Numbered from the stretch's first letter, positions 15,060-22,207 are shown. The stretch: DNA of 64,000 bases from an uncultured Planctomycetota bacterium (GCA_963752285.1 CAVVXN010000005.1:1344001-1408000), one strand, 5' to 3'. Program-made: numbers and translations. The notes: generated by a model not told the origin, from the sequence alone.

Positions 15060-15653
15060 TCATCCGCGATGGCGGCGTCCGAGGCGCGCGAGGAGCGCGC
15101 GCCAACCGTGCCCGCGCCCTCGCTCGGTCTCCTCGCGCCGGCGCTCGCTCGGCGTGGCGACGGTCACCACCTTGCTCTCGCGCACGAGCACCTCGACGGC
15201 GGTCGCCTTGTCGGATACAGGACCGGCGCGGTCCGACAAGGCGCGCACGCGCGGACACGGCGTCACGACGCCCGATTCCGCCCACGCGCGGGCCTGGTCG
15301 AGCGCACGCTCGACGACCTCGGCGACGTGCTCGGCCTCGAACGGCTTCAGCAGGTAGTCGAAGGCGCCCGCGTAGATGGCGGCCTTCACGCTCTCGCGGT
15401 CGCTGTGGCTGCTGACGATCAGGAACGGCACCCGCTCGTGGATGCGGGGCAGCAGCGCCTGCAAGAGGTCGAAGCCGTTCATCGTGGGCATCATCACGTC
15501 GGAGACGATCAGGTCGAAGGTCCCCTCCTCGTAGAGGTCCAGGGCCTCGGCGCCGTCGCGAGCGAGGACGGAGTGGTGCCCCTGCCGCGCCAGGAGGCCG
15601 GCGAGGGCCTCGCGGACCGCGGGTTCGTCGTCTACGAGCAGGACGTGGGCCAT
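15060..15653 (-). CDS. Response regulator receiver protein (no recognisable output domain)
   Basis: VLLVDDE, IVSDVMMP (phospho-Asp), YLLKPF. Confidence 0.9.
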   Translation of the reverse strand: MAHVLLVDDEPAVREALAGLLARQGHHSVLARDGAEALDLYEEGTFDLIVSDVMMPTMNGFDLLQALLPRIHERVPFLIVSSHSDRESVKAAIYAGAFDYLLKPFEAEHVAEVVERALDQARAWAESGVVTPCPRVRALSDRAGPVSDKATAVEVLVRESKVVTVATPSERRREETERGRGHGWRALLARLGRRHRG

Positions 15654-15734: not shown

Positions 15735-16250
15735 TCAGGAGGCGTCCGGGGCCTCGATGATGAAAGCGCCGGTCGTCTCGTCGCGGCGGGGCAGGAGCTC
15801 CTCCGCCAGGCGGCGTTCGCCCTCGGCCATCGCCTCGACGCGCTGCGCCCGCACGTTGCCGCCGTACAGCAGCTCGTTCAGCACGCGGCGCATCTCCTCG
15901 TTGTCCCAGGGCTTCGTGAAGAAGCGGTGGATGCGGCCCTCGTTGATCGCGCTGATCACGAGGTTCAGGTCGGCCTGGGCCGTCAGCAGGATCGTGGTGA
16001 CCCGCGGATGGCGGGCGCGCACGTCCTTGATGAGGTCCAGACCGTGGGTGCCCGGCATGTAGTGGTCGCAGATGATCAGGTCCACCTCGGGGTGGCGTTC
16101 GAGGATGCCCCAGGCCTCGGCGGCGTCGTACGCGTGCAGGAGCTTAAACGGCTCCCGTCGGAACGTTCGCTGCAACGCCCGGTGAATGGTCTCCTCGTCG
16201 TCCACGATCAGCACCGTCTTCGGGTCGTCGTGGCTCGGGTCGTGGTTCAT
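15735..16250 (-). CDS. Response regulator receiver protein (no recognisable output domain)
   Basis: VLIVDDE, IICDHYMPG, LLTAQAD...AINEGRIHRFFTKPW; GGAG RBS before ATG 16250. Confidence 0.9.
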   Translation of the reverse strand: MNHDPSHDDPKTVLIVDDEETIHRALQRTFRREPFKLLHAYDAAEAWGILERHPEVDLIICDHYMPGTHGLDLIKDVRARHPRVTTILLTAQADLNLVISAINEGRIHRFFTKPWDNEEMRRVLNELLYGGNVRAQRVEAMAEGERRLAEELLPRRDETTGAFIIEAPDAS

Positions 16251-17595
16251 GTCGGAACTCCGATCGGTCGCGGCGGATGAAAACGGGCAACTCCACCCGG
16301 AAGCAGGCACCGCCCCCGGCCGCGGTCTCGTAGCGGATGGTGCCTCGGAGGGACTTCGTGATCTCGCTCACCAAATGGAGCCCCAGGCCGGTCCCATGGC
16401 CTGGATCCTTCGTCGTGAAGAAGGGCTCGAAGACCCGCTGGCGGATCTCCTCCGGGATGCCCGGTCCCGTGTCCTCGACGACGAAGGCGATGTGGAAGGC
16501 GTCGGCGTCCTCGGCACGGACCTGGAGGACGCCCTCCTTCTGTCCGTCCATCGCGTCGAGCGCGTTCGACGCGAGGTTCAAGAGCACCTGGAGCACGCGC
16601 CCGGGGTCCGCCAGGATCAGACGCCGCGTCTTGGCCTCGGAGCGGAACACCAACGGCGGCCGGACGCGCGTCTTGAGGATCCGCGCGGCGCCCTCGATGG
16701 CCTCGAGCGGGTCCACGGGGAGCGGCACCGCGCGACCGCCCCGCGCCATCGTGGTGAGGTCCTTCACGACGCGCATGAGCTGGCGGCACGCAAGGCTGCA
16801 GTCGTCGAAGACCTCCTGCAGCTCCCGGGCCTCTCCCGCGCCGTCCTTGCCCTCGGCGACGGCGCGCTGCATGTCCTCGAGGATCTCGCGCGCCGGCTCG
16901 ATGCTGTTCGCGATGGCCGCCAGCGGGTTCTTCATCTCGTGGGTGATGCCCGCGGAGAGCATGCCGAGGGTCGCGAGGCGGTCGTTCGCGCGCAGCACCT
17001 CGCGCGTGGCCTTCAGCTCCTCGGTGCTGTGCTGCAGCTCGTCGGAGGTGTGGCGCAGCGCCTCCTCGACCTTCGCCTTCCCCTGCGCCTGCGCCCGCGC
17101 CGCGTGGGCGAGGTGGCTCATGAACAGCGCGACGACGAAGAAGAAGGCGAGGTGCGCGAGCGTGCCGAGCGAGAAGAGATCCGACGGTCCCGCCCCCCAC
17201 CGCGTGATCGTCGCGAACGCGACCGAGACGAGGATCGCGTTCACGAGCGCTGTGCCCACCCCCTCCAGGATCGCCGCGAGGAGCACGAGGCTGAGATACG
17301 CCGCGAGGAACCCAGGAACCGGCGCCCCGCGGATCACGACGAGGACGCCGACCGTCACGACGTCGAGCCCGAGGACCAGGCCGAGGAGGGTGCGCGAGCG
17401 CGCCCGGCGCCGCGGCCGCACGAGCGGGACCGAGAGCCCGTACGCGCCGACGAGCAGCCAGTAGAGCGCGCGGTGCCCGGGCGCGGCGCCGAGCCCGAGC
17501 AGAACGAGCCCGACCGCCGTCAGCGCGCGCAGCGCGCCGAGCACGGGACCCGGCTCGCTCGGCGTACGGGGCGTGGGCTCGCCGGCCGCCGTCAC
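16144..17595 (-). CDS. Membrane sensor histidine kinase
   Basis: Several TM helices; H-box ITHEMKNPL, N-box QVLLNLASNA, G1 EDTGPGI, F-box FEPFFTTK, G2 GTGLGL; GTG overlaps the upstream stop. Confidence 0.9.
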   Translation of the reverse strand: MTAAGEPTPRTPSEPGPVLGALRALTAVGLVLLGLGAAPGHRALYWLLVGAYGLSVPLVRPRRRARSRTLLGLVLGLDVVTVGVLVVIRGAPVPGFLAAYLSLVLLAAILEGVGTALVNAILVSVAFATITRWGAGPSDLFSLGTLAHLAFFFVVALFMSHLAHAARAQAQGKAKVEEALRHTSDELQHSTEELKATREVLRANDRLATLGMLSAGITHEMKNPLAAIANSIEPAREILEDMQRAVAEGKDGAGEARELQEVFDDCSLACRQLMRVVKDLTTMARGGRAVPLPVDPLEAIEGAARILKTRVRPPLVFRSEAKTRRLILADPGRVLQVLLNLASNALDAMDGQKEGVLQVRAEDADAFHIAFVVEDTGPGIPEEIRQRVFEPFFTTKDPGHGTGLGLHLVSEITKSLRGTIRYETAAGGGACFRVELPVFIRRDRSEFRHEPRPEPRRPEDGADRGRRGDHSPGVAANVPTGAV

Positions 17596-19649
17596 GACAC
17601 CGCCTCCTCGACGGACCGCGTGCCCATCTCGCCGATGCCCGGTGGGAGGTCGATCCGAAGCGTCGAGGTCTCCCCGTCGCGGTCGGCGACCAGGTCGGCC
17701 CCGGCCAGGCGCACCTCGGACGCCAGCTCCTCGACGCCCGGGCACGCCTCGCACTCGCCCTTCCCGGGGGCCCAGATCTCGATCGAAGGGCGCCCGTCGT
17801 GACGACCCACGTCGAGGATGAACGACGCGGCGCCGCACTCGGCCACGTGCGTGAGGAGTCGGAACAGCCACCGGACCAGCTCCCCCGTCGGGATCCCGCA
17901 GGCCACCCGCCCGTGCTCGCGCACGACGGGCGGCGACAGGTCGGGCACGGCGACCGAGAGGTGGCGTACCGCGTCCCGCACCGCGGCGCCGACGTCGGTG
18001 CGTACGGCGGCGAGGCGATGCGTGACGGCCTGACCGAAGAGCGAGCCCACGAGCCCCGCGATGCGTCGCGCGTCGGCGCGGGAGTCGCCCACCGCCTCCC
18101 CGACCTCGGCGAGGTCCTCGGCGTCCACCGGCGTTCCGATCGACCACCGTTCGAGGGACTCGGCGACGAAGTCGAGCGTGGCGATCATCGCGCCGAGAGG
18201 GTTGTTGATCTCGTGCGCGATGCCGGCGGCGAGGCGATGCACGCCCTCTTGCCGCTCGCGGTCGAGCATGCGCCGCTCGCTCTCGAGGGCCGCGCGCTTC
18301 GCGATCTCGAGCTCCTGGGTGCGCATCCGGACCCGACGCTCGAGAGACTCCTTCTCCTCCCGGAGCGCCTCCGTCCGCTCGGCGACCGTCTCTTCGAGCC
18401 GGTGGTTGCCCTCGCGGAGCGCCGTGATCGCCTCCATGCGCGCGACCGCGAGCCCGAGGAACTGGAGCGCGGTGGGAAGCACCCCGCCCACGTCCGGGGG
18501 CAGGCCGACCTGGCGGGGTCCGAGGAGCAGCAGCCAGCCCGTGCGGGGGCCCGCGACGGGGAACGAGATGAAGAGCCCCCGTCCGCCCGCGGCATCGCCC
18601 GGCAGCACCGCGGTGACGCTCTCGTCCACGGGCACGGGCAGGGCGACGGGCGCGCGCTCCTCGAGCTCCCGGGCGACGCGGTCGAGGAGCCGGGAGTCGG
18701 ACTCGACGCCGCGCGTGCCGTGCACCCAGCGCCGACCGTCGCTCCGGGGCAACGCCAGCCAGCCCGTGGTCGCGTCGAGGTTCATCACCAGCCGGACGAG
18801 CAGCCCGCGCGCGAGCGTGGGCACGTCGTCGGCCGCCGCGCACACGGCGCCGATCTCGATCAGGAGACGGCGGAGCGACCGCTCCCGGTCGAGCTCCTTC
18901 AGGTCCGCCTCGCGGACCTTCATCCAGTGGACGACCTCCTTGTCGGAGGCAGGCGCCGGGGCCTCCCACGGGAGCGGCGCGGGGGGATCGGGCTCGACCG
19001 CGGTCTCGGGGCGGAATCGCTGGCCGACCTTCGACGCGTACCGCGCGGCGTCCGGGTCGTCGCGCCCCGGCGGGAGGGCGCGCGACGCCGCGCTGGCGAC
19101 GAGCGTCGGCAGGACTTCGAACACGTCGTCCGCAACGCGCACGCCGACGCAGCCGGTCGGCGCGGGCCCCGCGTCGGCGAGCCAGGGCGGAAGGAGCACC
19201 CCGCCGAGCGGCACGTCGGCCGCGTCCCGCACGAGGACCGCGAGCGGCAGGTCCGAGGCGGGCGGACCGACGTGCGCGAGGTGGCCGACGAGCTCGCGCC
19301 ACGACGCGGCGGCGGCGGAGCGGGCGCCGGGCCCCGCGGGGAGCACGAAGAGCAGGAGATCGGTCTCGGCGAGCAGGCGCCGGCGGAGGTCCTCGAGTCC
19401 GGACGAGTCCCCGGCCGTCAGGCAGTGGAGCCGGAGCTGATGCAGGCCGTGAGGGGGCAGGTCGAGGAAGGCGTACTCGACCTGGCCGGCCGCGTTCGAG
19501 CCCTCCTCGAGGCGGACCCTCCCGCCGCGCGAGGGGGCCTCGCAGGCCGAGTGGATGCGGGCGAGGAGCGCGCTCTTCGCGGAGCCCGGGGGCCCCCAGA
19601 GCACGAGCCTCAAGTGTGCCCGTCCATCACTTGCCTCGACGCGTGCCAT
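17592..19649 (-). CDS. MglA-like (degenerate) small GTPase domain + GAF-like region + coiled coil + HisKA with degenerate ATPase domain
   Basis: N-terminus RLVLWGPPGSAKS...LRLHCLTAG...RRRLLAETDLLLFV aligns by eye with MglA; H-box LAAGIAHEINNPL; no N/G1/F/G2 boxes. Confidence 0.75.
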   Translation of the reverse strand: MARVEASDGRAHLRLVLWGPPGSAKSALLARIHSACEAPSRGGRVRLEEGSNAAGQVEYAFLDLPPHGLHQLRLHCLTAGDSSGLEDLRRRLLAETDLLLFVLPAGPGARSAAAASWRELVGHLAHVGPPASDLPLAVLVRDAADVPLGGVLLPPWLADAGPAPTGCVGVRVADDVFEVLPTLVASAASRALPPGRDDPDAARYASKVGQRFRPETAVEPDPPAPLPWEAPAPASDKEVVHWMKVREADLKELDRERSLRRLLIEIGAVCAAADDVPTLARGLLVRLVMNLDATTGWLALPRSDGRRWVHGTRGVESDSRLLDRVARELEERAPVALPVPVDESVTAVLPGDAAGGRGLFISFPVAGPRTGWLLLLGPRQVGLPPDVGGVLPTALQFLGLAVARMEAITALREGNHRLEETVAERTEALREEKESLERRVRMRTQELEIAKRAALESERRMLDRERQEGVHRLAAGIAHEINNPLGAMIATLDFVAESLERWSIGTPVDAEDLAEVGEAVGDSRADARRIAGLVGSLFGQAVTHRLAAVRTDVGAAVRDAVRHLSVAVPDLSPPVVREHGRVACGIPTGELVRWLFRLLTHVAECGAASFILDVGRHDGRPSIEIWAPGKGECEACPGVEELASEVRLAGADLVADRDGETSTLRIDLPPGIGEMGTRSVEEAVS

Positions 19650-19721: not shown

Positions 19722-19749
19722 TCTTCAGAAAGCCTGAAGAAACCCTGAA
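19722..19749. promoter_or_regulatory. Putative regulator-binding site upstream of the signalling operon
   Basis: TCTTCAG-N5-CTGAAGA inverted repeat overlapping an 11-bp direct repeat GAAAGCCTGAA/GAAACCCTGAA in an AT-richer patch. Confidence 0.4.
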
Positions 19750-19756
19750 CGGCGGG

Positions 19757-22207
19757 TCAGGCGAGGGGCGCGAAGCGCGCGAGGAGATAGGCCCCGACCC
19801 GTGCCGGCGTGGCCTCCCGTACCCGGTCCCGCCACGCCCCGAGGTCCACCCGCCCGGGCGGCCCGCCGAGCAGGGGCGAGAGGTGGATGCGGTCGTTCGC
19901 CCCGAGTCCGAGCTGGCCGACGAACGCGGCCGTCCGCTCTCGGTGGCGCGTCTCCACCTCACGCTCCCCGATCCCGACCAGCACCGTCAGCGATACCGCG
20001 ACCCCGGCCGCGCGCATCCCCCCTACCTCGTCCCGCACGCGTGCGAGGTCGCCCTCCTTGCCGAGCGACCGGCGGAGCTGCGGGTCCCCGGTCTCGAGGC
20101 CGATGGCCCCCTCGACGACACCGGCGGCCGCGAGCCTCCGCCACGCCGCGGCGTCCCGCCGCGGCGCGCGGTCCGGGTCGAGGAACGACGCGACGCCGCG
20201 CCGCAGCGCCCCGATGCGCGCCCGCACGCGGTCGAGCCGCCGGAGCAGGCGGTCGTCCCCGATCGAGAGCGCCGACGCGGACCCCAGGAACGCGCCGTCG
20301 CGCTCGGCCAGCGCGGGACCGAACCAGCGGACCACCCGGTCCAGATGCCGCTCGAACGACGCGGTGTCGAGCACCCGGAACGGCCTACCGCGCCACAGCG
20401 CGCAGAACGAGCACCGCGCGTTCGGACAGCCCGTCGCGGGCAGCACCACCACGTCCCGGTACCGGTGCGGGAGCAGCGCCGGCACCGACTCGGGGTACGC
20501 CCGACGGTACAGGGCCTCGTCCTCCGCGAATCGCTCCGCCGTCCACGAACGGGCGGCCTCGAGCCTGCGGAAGAGCGCCGCCCGCGCTCGCGGTCCGCCC
20601 GTAGGCGCGCGCTCCGCGTCGAGCTCGCCGCTCGGGTCGCTCGACTCGACCTCGCCGACCTCGCCGACCTCGCCGACCTCGCCGACCTCGCCGACCTCGC
20701 CGATCTCGCCGATCTCGCCGAGGAACGCCTCCACGCGGCGCCGCACGCGCTCGTGCACGCGGTCGCGCGCGTCGCGCTCGAGACCCGCGCCGCGCGCGAG
20801 ACCCTCGAACACGCGCCCGTCGAGAGCGCGCCGGTACCGCGCGCGCCCCTCGGCGAACGCGGCCCAACGACCGCTGGCGTCGAGGCGGAGGTGGAAACGG
20901 TCTTCCTCCTCCACCACGGCGGCCCAACGCGACACGTTCACGTGGAGAGACACGGCAGACGATGGTAGGCCGGCGCGGCCGCGGGTCCCCACGATGGCCG
21001 CGCCCCGCGTCACGGCGGCGCGCGCGGCCGCCCGGCCTGCCCGGCCTGCCCGCCCGCGCGCCTGCGGCGGGCTCTGGCGCTCCCGCCCTGCGGCGGGCTT
21101 ACCACGCTCCCGCCCTGCGGCGGGCTCGCGCCGCCCTCGCCGCGGCGTCTTCCCGACCGCGCGGAGCAGCCACGCCGGCCGCTCGGGCGGCTCGCGATCC
21201 TCGGGGAGGGGCTTGGGCGCGAGGAACGCGCCCGTCGCCGCGATCACGAACAGCGGTCGCCCGTCCGTGGACCAGCACCGAAGCGCGATCATCCCCAGGT
21301 CGTAGTTCTTGTGGTGGACCACGCAGCCGTCGAAGAGGTCCTTCGCCTCCCGACCGCTCCCGTCCGCGTGCGGCCTCACGTGGCACAGCTCCGCCGCTAC
21401 GCGCGTGCAGAGCCCGACCTCGCACAGGCCTCCCGAACGCCGACGGATCGCCCGGACCACCTCCGCCGGGACCTCCCGGTCCCCGGGGCGCTCTTCGGTC
21501 GGCGGAAGACGCCGCGGCCTGGGCTCCTTCCGCGTCGGGTCCCACCGTGCCCGGTACGCGTACGCGAGCACCGCCAGGAGCTGGCCGTTGTCGATCGCGC
21601 ACTCGGCCTTCTTCTTCGCGATCCTGCGGCACGCCCGCAGGTCGTCCGCGGCGTCGGGTCCCACGTGCGCGACGAAGGTCGTGACGTCGGACTCCGGCGC
21701 GACGTGACGTCGCGCGGCCAGGCGGCGTCCCACGCGACGGCGGAGCGCGCCGACGCGCAAGGACCTGGCGAGGTCGAGCCAGTCGTCGCCCGCCTCGAGG
21801 TAGCGCTCCGGGTCTACGAAGACGTCGCCGAGCAGGATGGCCGCCGCGAAGGAGATCCCGCCCGCGCGGACCTCCTCCTCCAGGCCGGGCAGGCGCTCCA
21901 GGGCGTAGCCGAGCATCAGGAGCTGACGCCCCCGCGCGCCGTCGAACCCGTAGCGCTCGGAGAGCTCCCAGGTCGAGGCGGCGCTCTCCCACACGCAGGA
22001 GCCCTGCTCGTGGAGGCGGACCATCAGCTTCGCGTAGGCGATCTCGGCGTCGCCGAGCGCGCGGCTCCGGGCCCGCAGGAGCGCGATCCCCTCGGGGTCC
22101 TTCTCTCCGCGGAGGGTGCGCCGGTCGATGCGCCGCTCGGAGATCCCGCCCTCGGAGGGGCGGCGCTCGGGGTCGCTTCGTTCGTGGAGTTCGCGTTCCG
22201 ACAGCAC
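19757..22207 (-). CDS. HNH-type (DUF222-like) protein in frame with a radical SAM protein; possibly two genes (radical SAM about 19757-21013)
   Basis: N-half: REVPAEVVRAIRRRSGGLCEVGLC...CHVRPH...GCVVHH. C-half: TGCPNARCSFC, AFLGSASAL, IGLETGD, TVLVGIG. Confidence 0.7.
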   Translation of the reverse strand: MLSERELHERSDPERRPSEGGISERRIDRRTLRGEKDPEGIALLRARSRALGDAEIAYAKLMVRLHEQGSCVWESAASTWELSERYGFDGARGRQLLMLGYALERLPGLEEEVRAGGISFAAAILLGDVFVDPERYLEAGDDWLDLARSLRVGALRRRVGRRLAARRHVAPESDVTTFVAHVGPDAADDLRACRRIAKKKAECAIDNGQLLAVLAYAYRARWDPTRKEPRPRRLPPTEERPGDREVPAEVVRAIRRRSGGLCEVGLCTRVAAELCHVRPHADGSGREAKDLFDGCVVHHKNYDLGMIALRCWSTDGRPLFVIAATGAFLAPKPLPEDREPPERPAWLLRAVGKTPRRGRREPAAGRERGKPAAGRERQSPPQARGRAGRAGRAAARAAVTRGAAIVGTRGRAGLPSSAVSLHVNVSRWAAVVEEEDRFHLRLDASGRWAAFAEGRARYRRALDGRVFEGLARGAGLERDARDRVHERVRRRVEAFLGEIGEIGEVGEVGEVGEVGEVGEVESSDPSGELDAERAPTGGPRARAALFRRLEAARSWTAERFAEDEALYRRAYPESVPALLPHRYRDVVVLPATGCPNARCSFCALWRGRPFRVLDTASFERHLDRVVRWFGPALAERDGAFLGSASALSIGDDRLLRRLDRVRARIGALRRGVASFLDPDRAPRRDAAAWRRLAAAGVVEGAIGLETGDPQLRRSLGKEGDLARVRDEVGGMRAAGVAVSLTVLVGIGEREVETRHRERTAAFVGQLGLGANDRIHLSPLLGGPPGRVDLGAWRDRVREATPARVGAYLLARFAPLA
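20651..20722. repeat. 9-bp tandem repeat (CTCGCCGAN)x8 encoding (GEI)2(GEV)6
   Basis: Directly visible: five CTCGCCGAC, two CTCGCCGAT, one CTCGCCGAG. Confidence 0.95.
21078..21126. repeat. 22-bp direct repeat (27-nt period) in the HNH/radical SAM linker
   Basis: CGCTCCCGCCCTGCGGCGGGCT at 21078-21099 and 21105-21126; encodes PAAGRER twice. Confidence 0.85.

Follow-up and report, generated by a model that had tools for sequence, protein, structure and literature searches.

The window analysed here is a 64,000-nucleotide stretch of DNA from an uncultured Planctomycetota bacterium (GCA_963752285.1, CAVVXN010000005.1:1344001-1408000), and all positions are counted from its first letter. On its reverse strand there is one gene, at 17592-19649, whose product (P0001) is a cytoplasmic four-module protein in which an MglA-fold G domain is followed by a probable GAF domain, a DHp domain and a CA fold. 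P0001 is a pseudo-histidine-kinase variant in an uncharacterised family of G-protein-kinase fusions, in which the phospho-acceptor histidine is kept, the ATP pocket and the GTPase are lost, and a partner kinase (HK2) is gained; we infer its mechanism below. The gene and its modules, with the evidence for each, are as follows:

17592-19649, reverse strand: whole gene (pseudo-GTPase, GAF domain, signalling helix, DHp domain and CA stub; 685 residues); translation, codon composition, homologue N-termini and model
19065-19649, reverse strand: MglA-type G domain with dead motifs, residues 1-195; profile match, structure match and motif alignment
18441-18929, reverse strand: N-terminal helix and probable GAF domain, residues 241-403; homologue alignment and model
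18255-18440, reverse strand: long signalling helix or coiled coil, residues 404-465; model
18009-18254, reverse strand: DHp domain (HisKA-type), residues 466-547; Pfam and alignments
17595-18008, reverse strand: CA (Bergerat) fold without N-box Asn, F box, G2 box and ATP lid, residues 548-685; alignments and fold match

The G+C content is 70-77% in every 2-kb segment of the window, and spurious long open reading frames are common; since high G+C gives many such frames, genes were called by G+C content at the codon positions. The frame at 17592-19649 has values of 0.80, 0.53 and 0.93 at positions 1, 2 and 3, as in the true genes of the window. It starts with an ATG at 19649 (MARVE...), and the resulting N-terminus agrees with those of the homologues P0006 and P0007. 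All segments quoted in an earlier, sequence-only reading of this DNA are present in the translation: RLVLWGPPGSAKS (residues 14-26), LRLHCLTAG (72-80), RRRLLAETDLLLFV (89-102), DLPLAVLVRD (133-142), DVFEVL (175-180) and AHEINNPL (478-485). Direct Pfam and NCBIfam scans of the protein returned only a sub-threshold HisKA match (24.8 bits, with a cut-off of 26.9), a weak AAA_16 match and partial kinase equivalogs far under their cut-offs, and neither the G domain nor the GAF domain was detected by Pfam on the P0001 sequence itself. The AlphaFold2 model of the full protein, built from a 36-row alignment, has a mean predicted local distance difference test score (pLDDT) of 85.1 and a predicted template modelling score (pTM) of 0.40.

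The N-terminal 195 residues are an MglA-type G domain, because both profile searches and superposition of the model point to MglA. Specifically, an hmmsearch of the Protein Data Bank with a profile made from P0001 and four relatives matched Thermus MglA (3t12) over residues 1-169 (E-value 1.1e-13) and, at about 2e-11, Myxococcus MglA, while Foldseek superimposed the model on the MglA structures 3t1o, 6h17 and 6hjo with target-normalised TM scores of 0.71-0.79. Aligned with relatives, the motifs of the domain are degenerate. In the G1 box (Walker A, GxxxxGK[ST]), P0001 reads GPPGSAKS, with Ala in place of the second Gly; its nearest relatives read GPPCARKS, GPPCAGKP and GPAGSGTS. Switch I reads SNAAGQ, whereas relatives have [DE]RT, so that the intrinsic Arg finger and the Thr are gone; G3 reads LTAGD instead of TVPGQ, without the catalytic Gln; and the G4 box (N/TKxD) is replaced by VLVRDAAD, whereas relatives have NKxD, with G5 likewise missing. 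Nevertheless, identity between P0001 and its nearest homologues P0006 and P0007 is 54-55% in the G domain, compared with 54-61% in DHp, 40-44% in GAF and 35-36% in the CA stub. Because the dead G domain is conserved as well as DHp, and better than GAF or the CA stub, this comparison argues for purifying selection on it and suggests that it is retained for some role.

The core of the second module, residues ~273-403, aligns with Pfam GAF or GAF_2 matches of six homologues and is modelled as an alpha/beta domain. P0001 itself has no Pfam GAF match, and Foldseek matches it to bacteriophytochrome GAF-kinase chains, among others. In the model, residues 387-505 form one continuous helix that runs from the GAF domain into DHp.

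The DHp domain carries a complete H-box, AHEINNPL, comprising H479 (codon at 18213-18215), E480 at position H+1 and N483 at H+4. In HisKA kinases, the Thr or Asn at H+4 is required for phosphatase activity and the acid at H+1 for kinase activity, according to Willett and Kirby (PMC3510030). The completeness of the H-box argues that phosphoryl chemistry persists in the DHp domain of P0001.

By contrast, the CA half retains its fold and has lost its pocket. Modelled alone, the last 138 residues reach a pLDDT of 88.2 and a pTM of 0.83, and they superimpose on the CA domains of VanS, HK853 and NtrB with root-mean-square deviations of 2.1-2.4 Å over 120-123 residues (VanS, by VIA-align: Z 15.4, 2.1 Å, 120 residues). 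In the fold search 59 chains reached a Z of at least 8, among them the degenerate CA domain of DivL (4q20, Z 14.4) and the kinase region of RetS (6dk8, Z 13.4), and the Foldseek matches of the full model include the RetS-GacS structure 7n0e; neither Spo0B nor ChpT is among the 50 best CA-stub matches listed, which is not an exclusion of kinship. Where complete relatives have the N-box Asn, P0001 has another residue, its G1 box (DxGxG) is shrunk to DGR or DGP, and it lacks a stretch of ~25 residues that bears the F and G2 boxes (the ATP lid); the signature GIPxxELxRWLFRLL is characteristic of the stub in its clade. There is no Pfam HATPase_c match on P0001. With its ATP-binding elements gone, P0001 is not expected, on its sequence, to bind ATP in the usual way.

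The sequence-only reading had proposed an MglA-like N-terminus that lacks the G3 Gln and NKxD, joined to a histidine pseudokinase with an intact phospho-His box and an ATPase half devoid of the N-box Asn, DxGxG and GxGLG. The profile match, the superposition and the alignments bear out all of these points, to which they add the loss of the switch-I Arg and Thr and the persistence of the CA fold. Its two-part architecture is correct in so far as a pseudo-GTPase and a His-retaining pseudokinase are tied to His-Asp signalling, but it overlooked the probable GAF domain between the halves. The scaffold or phosphotransfer role that it assigned to P0001 is putative.

The relatives of P0001 reveal a large family of fused proteins. 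A word-indexed search returned, beyond P0001 itself, four relatives (P0006-P0009, 39-48% identity) and three generic kinases, while an exhaustive profile search returned 18,056 proteins at E ≤ 0.001, 730 at 1e-10 and 37 at 1e-30. A further search of genome contigs with a back-translated H-box pattern kept 80 loci, which match only residues ~310-640 (23-51% identity) and were rejected as generic kinases, none of them orthologous. We scanned 32 proteins chosen from the profile-search listing with Pfam. Half of them (16/32) have HATPase_c, mostly together with HisKA, GAF and Arf/Ras-type matches, and are complete MglA-GAF-histidine kinases of ~680-790 residues; seven close relatives (P0013, P0014 and P0017-P0021) have no HATPase_c match; three (P0104, P0136 and P0155) join an MglA-like G domain to a Ser/Thr protein kinase, one with TPR repeats; and six have neither HATPase_c nor a protein-kinase domain. 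The Ser/Thr kinase fusions loosely recall the eukaryotic Roc-kinase architecture. The database names of the relatives are generic ('ATP-binding protein', 'GAF domain-containing protein', once 'MglA'), and the named records all come from metagenome-assembled genomes. The existence of this large MglA-GAF-HisKA-HATPase_c family corrects the premise of the sequence-only reading that MglA is normally a stand-alone protein: MglA-type domains also occur in fusions.

Motif states were read from the 36-row family alignment, which comprises 19 members of the clade of P0001, hereafter the ATP-blind clade, and 17 complete kinases; CA status was taken from alignments and Pfam. Loss of the ATP lid is common to all 19 clade members, and none of the seven clade representatives scanned has a Pfam match to HATPase_c. 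The phospho-acceptor His is aligned in 35 of the 36 family rows; within the ATP-blind clade, all 19 members have both this His and the Asn at H+4, and 18 of the 19 have an acid at H+1. The GTPase motifs are more varied. All four are present in eight clade members; five keep G1 and NKxD without the catalytic Gln, four of these also without the switch-I Arg and Thr; and six, including P0001, have none of the four. Every one of the 17 complete kinases has G1 and a G4-like box, and 12 of them have PGQ. In P0067, a complete GTPase-GAF-HATPase_c member, the phospho-acceptor His has been lost (ADRLQQP), a degeneration opposite to that of P0001.

In a careful maximum-likelihood tree, complete kinases and the ATP-blind clade are split at 100/100. 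Within the ATP-blind clade, the GTPase-intact members are basal, the 11 impaired or dead members form one derived clade (91/98), and the five partly impaired members form a subclade (96/97). The dead state of the G domain takes at least two changes on this tree; the tree has a midpoint root only, and its groups are defined by the same motifs as were mapped. The ATP-blind clade, as judged from sequence, descends from the large MglA-GAF-HisKA-HATPase_c family. Because distant clade members keep all GTPase motifs, the ATP and GTP losses appear to fall at different times: a single loss of the ATP lid would have come first, in the window's family, and a sub-lineage would afterwards have lost the catalysis and then the nucleotide-binding motifs of its G domain. 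P0001 is not a one-off decaying copy, because its closest homologues, P0006 and P0007, share the lost motifs and conserve the G domain like DHp. The concern that close homologues with intact motifs would mark this gene as decaying is not borne out; intact GTPase motifs are found in more distant clade members, eight of the 19.

With the first 350 residues as query, matches were obtained from 17 of 40 genomes of the order, the window's own counted; by taxonomic family, with the own genome excluded, matches occur in 11/28 genomes of the window's family and 5/11 of the sister family. The other genome of the same genus, which is 80% complete, has no match to the first 350 residues. The ATP-blind CA stub was found in six of 401 phylum-wide genomes, the own one included; all six belong to the window's family (5/16 sampled there), and none was found with this query in six sister-family genomes or in the other families sampled.

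Adjacent to the pseudokinase gene there are further signalling genes and one hairpin:

16144-17595, reverse strand: partner kinase HK2, 483 residues; open reading frame, Pfam and hydrophobicity
15735-16250, reverse strand: RR1, single-domain response regulator, 171 residues from the ATG at 16250; receiver match and conserved C-terminal tail
15060-15653, reverse strand: RR2, second receiver protein, 197 residues; receiver match
19744-19761, reverse strand: terminator-like hairpin directly after the upstream radical-SAM gene; sequence

The terminator-like hairpin and a gap of 107 nt between the radical-SAM gene and the pseudokinase gene lie upstream, and the pseudokinase gene therefore probably heads its own transcription unit. 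At its other end, the GTG start of HK2 overlaps the pseudokinase stop (GTGA, 17592-17595), which suggests translational coupling of the two genes. HK2, the adjacent kinase to which the sequence-only reading had referred, is real: it has ~5-6 hydrophobic segments in residues 15-166, connected by very short loops and followed by HisKA and an intact HATPase_c (2.2e-25), and it is not a hybrid kinase. The idea that HK2 is a recent duplicate of the P0001 kinase core is not supported: when the DHp matches of the genome, 24 in all, are ranked, HK2 comes 14th (30% identity, E 0.006; 24% by BLASTP). The last ~107 nt of HK2 also encode, in another frame, the beginning of RR1 (16144-16250, reverse strand). 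In eight relatives (of L095 and L097-L104), with RR1 ATG starts chosen heuristically, this overlap is ~53-95 nt. In the window, a second terminator-like hairpin, at 16284-16299, lies in the HK2 tail just past the last CA strand.

This arrangement is conserved. We searched 12 relatives' loci that carry homologues of the ATP-blind type with the window proteins; nine have DNA downstream of a full-length gene, two (L096 and L086) end within the homologue gene, and one (L109) carries only a shorter paralogue, described below. In all nine loci with downstream DNA, the order is pseudokinase, HK2 (40-52% identity), RR1 (53-60%), and across the clade RR1 is 53-62% identical. RR2 was found outside the window genome only at the closest relative, L095 (1/9 relatives' loci), and it is for this reason probably outside the core module; the radical-SAM and pyruvate:ferredoxin oxidoreductase genes likewise recur only at L095. 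At four sister-family loci (L105-L108), the gene immediately downstream of a homologue with full CA motifs encodes a short RR1-subtype regulator, and HK2 is missing. These regulators share the subtype marks D-x-x-MPG, LTAQAD and KPW and have no C-terminal tail. Because the RR1 extension is missing in these regulators paired with complete kinases, sequence comparison indicates that it arose together with HK2 and the loss of the ATP lid. The extension ends in a conserved D-x-x-G-A-[FWY]-[ILV]-I.

Several other features were observed around these loci. OmpR-type regulators lie within a few genes at three relatives' loci (L098, L100 and L101). At L100 and L101 (in G025 and G023, whose proteins keep G1 and NKxD without the catalytic Gln), a conserved block upstream of the triad comprises a Ser/Thr kinase-AAA_16-TPR protein, a GAF-sigma54 activator, a transglutaminase-like gene, a nitroreductase and an OmpR-type regulator. 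The genome of triad L099 also contains a shorter G-domain-GAF paralogue (L109; G022:C51, 464-1933, forward strand) in a 490-residue frame with an intact P-loop, and no HK2 or RR1 match follows it. In the window, the upstream frame at 19757-22207 (reverse strand, 816 codons) has a radical-SAM C-terminal half and a Cys/His-rich N-terminal half, with a GE[IV] tandem repeat (EIGEIGEVGEVGEV...) in the middle; the frame may represent a pair of genes or a fusion, and the radical-SAM half alone recurs in the closest relative. The only two Roadblock/LC7 (PF03259) matches of the genome are on contig C1, whereas the window is part of C5, so there is none in the window, and Robl_LC7 was not found among 29 neighbour open reading frames scanned from five relatives' triad loci. 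On contig C1, at 716918-718764 (L002, L110 and L111), a distant MglA-like gene (22% identity to the P0001 G domain) lies between the two Roadblock/LC7 genes, a layout reminiscent of the MglA system of group-3 type, which has two MglB genes (PMC4316618).

We tentatively favour, although it falls somewhat short of an even chance, a reading in which P0001 is an ATP-blind and GTP-blind co-sensor: HK2 would phosphorylate RR1, and P0001 would dock RR1 and, controlled by its GAF domain, take away or buffer the phosphate. The ancestral state was most likely a bifunctional kinase regulated by the G domain and GAF and paired with an RR1-type regulator. In the window's family, the membrane kinase HK2 would have come to sit between the fused protein and RR1. 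P0001 would no longer be able to autophosphorylate, while its DHp domain would still dock RR1, the ancestral partner, and handle the RR1 phosphoryl group. HK2 would supply ATP-dependent phosphorylation on a membrane signal, and the pseudokinase would oppose or buffer that signal, acting as a GAF-controlled phosphatase of RR1~P or as a back-transfer sink. The dead G domain would, as the simplest account, be a fixed interaction or regulatory surface and not a nucleotide switch. A former bifunctional G-protein-regulated kinase would in this way have been split into the kinase HK2 and a co-sensor. We favour the phosphatase or buffer role because the H-box is complete, including the Asn at H+4 in the whole clade.

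Four observations weigh against this reading. The kinase-specific H+1 acid, kept in 18/19 clade members, is needless in a pure phosphatase and favours models with a phosphorylated H479, namely the split-kinase and relay rivals below; its conservation keeps trans-phosphorylation of H479 by HK2 in view as an alternative. The DHp domain of P0001 has no special likeness to that of HK2 (rank 14 of 24) and gives no sign of a recent common origin with it. Residues below the His usually set partner specificity, and in ~10 triads they vary among both pseudokinase and HK2 orthologues, so that the main partner of RR1 is not indicated. Finally, the P-loop Lys-Ser of GPPGSAKS is still present, and the G domain may for this reason, to judge by its sequence, bind some nucleotide. 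A complex prediction for full-length P0001 with RR1, run without controls, scored 0.30 against a mark of 0.32 and counts neither for nor against a contact.

The conserved H+1 acid leads to the strongest rival, itself doubtful, in which P0001 and HK2 are a split kinase: the CA domain of HK2 would phosphorylate H479 in trans, in a hetero-oligomer or heterodimer, and the phosphate would then pass to RR1, whose phosphorylation would need both membrane (HK2) and cytoplasmic (GAF, G domain) inputs. Conservation of the His (19/19) together with the acid (18/19; for its role, see PMC3510030) is consistent with such a scheme, as is the presence of HK2 in the same lineages as the loss of the ATP lid. 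Furthermore, the start/stop codon overlap would favour co-assembly, and the strongly conserved RWLFRLL motif on the surface of the CA stub is a possible contact site. However, the DHp domains of P0001 and HK2 are only 24-30% identical, the genome has DHp paralogues closer to P0001 than HK2, and HK2 has its own complete H-box, with which it could phosphorylate RR1 directly. A more specific version, a shade more doubtful again, is a naturally split histidine kinase in which P0001 provides DHp and cytoplasmic sensing, HK2 provides the only ATP-binding domain, and the fossil G domain is a permanent docking surface. If true, this would be the first obligate hetero-oligomeric histidine kinase and, together with the active-GTPase relatives, an evolutionary series of a G-protein-gated kinase being dismantled.

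The conserved His bears differently on the remaining accounts. P0001 could be an allosteric regulator of HK2, in the manner of DivL-CckA or RetS-GacS. It would bind to HK2, or read the state of RR1, and move HK2 between its kinase and phosphatase modes while carrying no phosphate. The tight coupling of the two genes and the DivL and RetS structures among the fold matches (4q20, 6dk8 and 7n0e) point in this direction, but the His, the H+1 acid and the H+4 Asn, kept over a deep clade, are hard to explain without phosphoryl chemistry, and we consider this account unlikely. A relay of the Spo0B/ChpT type, running from HK2 through RR1 and H479 to a terminal regulator (RR2 here, an OmpR-type protein elsewhere), would make use of the His; a DHp with His and an ATP-blind CA-like domain is the Spo0B/ChpT architecture, RR1 is a single-domain receiver, RR2 is a second receiver gene in the window, and OmpR-type regulators lie near three relatives' loci. 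It is nonetheless improbable: RR2 was found at only one of nine relatives' loci, no terminal regulator is conserved, and Spo0B and ChpT are missing from the 50 best fold matches listed, although this does not exclude them. That the gene is decaying and without function is the least credible account of all, very improbable despite the loss of two sets of catalytic motifs, since the frame is intact (0.93 G+C at third positions), the model is confident (pLDDT 85) and synteny is conserved; moreover, the same degenerate state, with many invariant replacement residues, is found in homologues at 47-48% identity, in which the G domain is 54-55% conserved.

The ATP-blind clade and its relatives provide a series within one lineage, leading from a complete GTPase-GAF-kinase, through an ATP-blind protein with an active GTPase and a recruited kinase and one impaired in GTP hydrolysis, to a protein with a dead G domain. 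With this series one can ask what effect the G domain has on the kinase core; how a kinase without an ATP pocket stays useful, be it as phosphatase, phosphate sink or substrate of trans-phosphorylation; and whether bacterial pseudo-GTPases are fixed interaction modules, like eukaryotic ones. We know of no experimental study of a histidine kinase that is gated by a Ras-like G domain of its own. The stakes are moderate, since the organism has not been cultured and, among the genomes searched, the ATP-blind family is limited to a single family-level lineage.

In the searchable literature, which is mostly without subscription journals, we found neither an MglA-histidine-kinase fusion nor this pseudokinase described. 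To our knowledge, the conservon is the only described link between an MglA-type GTPase and a histidine kinase. In the Streptomyces conservon (CvnA kinase, CvnB Roadblock, CvnC and CvnD MglA-like GTPase) and in mycobacterial Mfp, an MglA-family G protein is tied functionally to a membrane histidine kinase (PMC4316618). In the conservon the proteins are separate, the GTPase is active and has a Roadblock partner, and a response regulator is lacking; at the P0001 locus, by contrast, the GTPase is dead and part of a fusion, a regulator is conserved, and no Roadblock partner lies nearby. The same survey of prokaryotic Ras-superfamily GTPases, by Wuichet and Sogaard-Andersen, gives kinase links, in its accessible text, only for conservon and Rup GTPase neighbourhoods; it left out sequences longer than 240 residues (PMC4316618), and with them the MglA-GAF-HisKA-HATPase_c family.

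Among the closest systems is that fusion family, which has the same domain order and full-length homology and of which the P0001 clade is the sister group in the tree; it differs in its intact ATPase, its mostly intact GTPase motifs and the absence of a separate partner kinase at the four sister-family loci. Compared with MglA of Myxococcus xanthus and Thermus thermophilus (group 1), the G domain of P0001 has the same fold, with TM scores of 0.77-0.79, and is colinear, including the N-terminal extra strand and the long beta2-beta3 region, and the fused relatives of P0001 carry the full MglA signature (GxxxxGKT, switch-I RT, TVPGQ and NKxD). P0001 differs in that the four motifs are lost, that the domain is fused to GAF and a kinase core, and that the window has no Roadblock/MglB gene.

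Spo0B and ChpT have a DHp-like bundle with a conserved His and a CA-like domain unable to bind ATP, and the same combination is found in P0001. No similarity specific to these proteins was found in P0001, there is no conserved second regulator, and P0001 has the additional G and GAF domains. DivL of Caulobacter and RetS of Pseudomonas are kinase-derived regulators of another kinase that do not signal by autophosphorylation; they keep a full-length CA domain, whereas the ATP lid of P0001 is deleted. DivL, moreover, carries a Tyr in place of the phospho-acceptor His, whereas P0001 retains H479, with a His at this position in every one of the 19 members of its clade.

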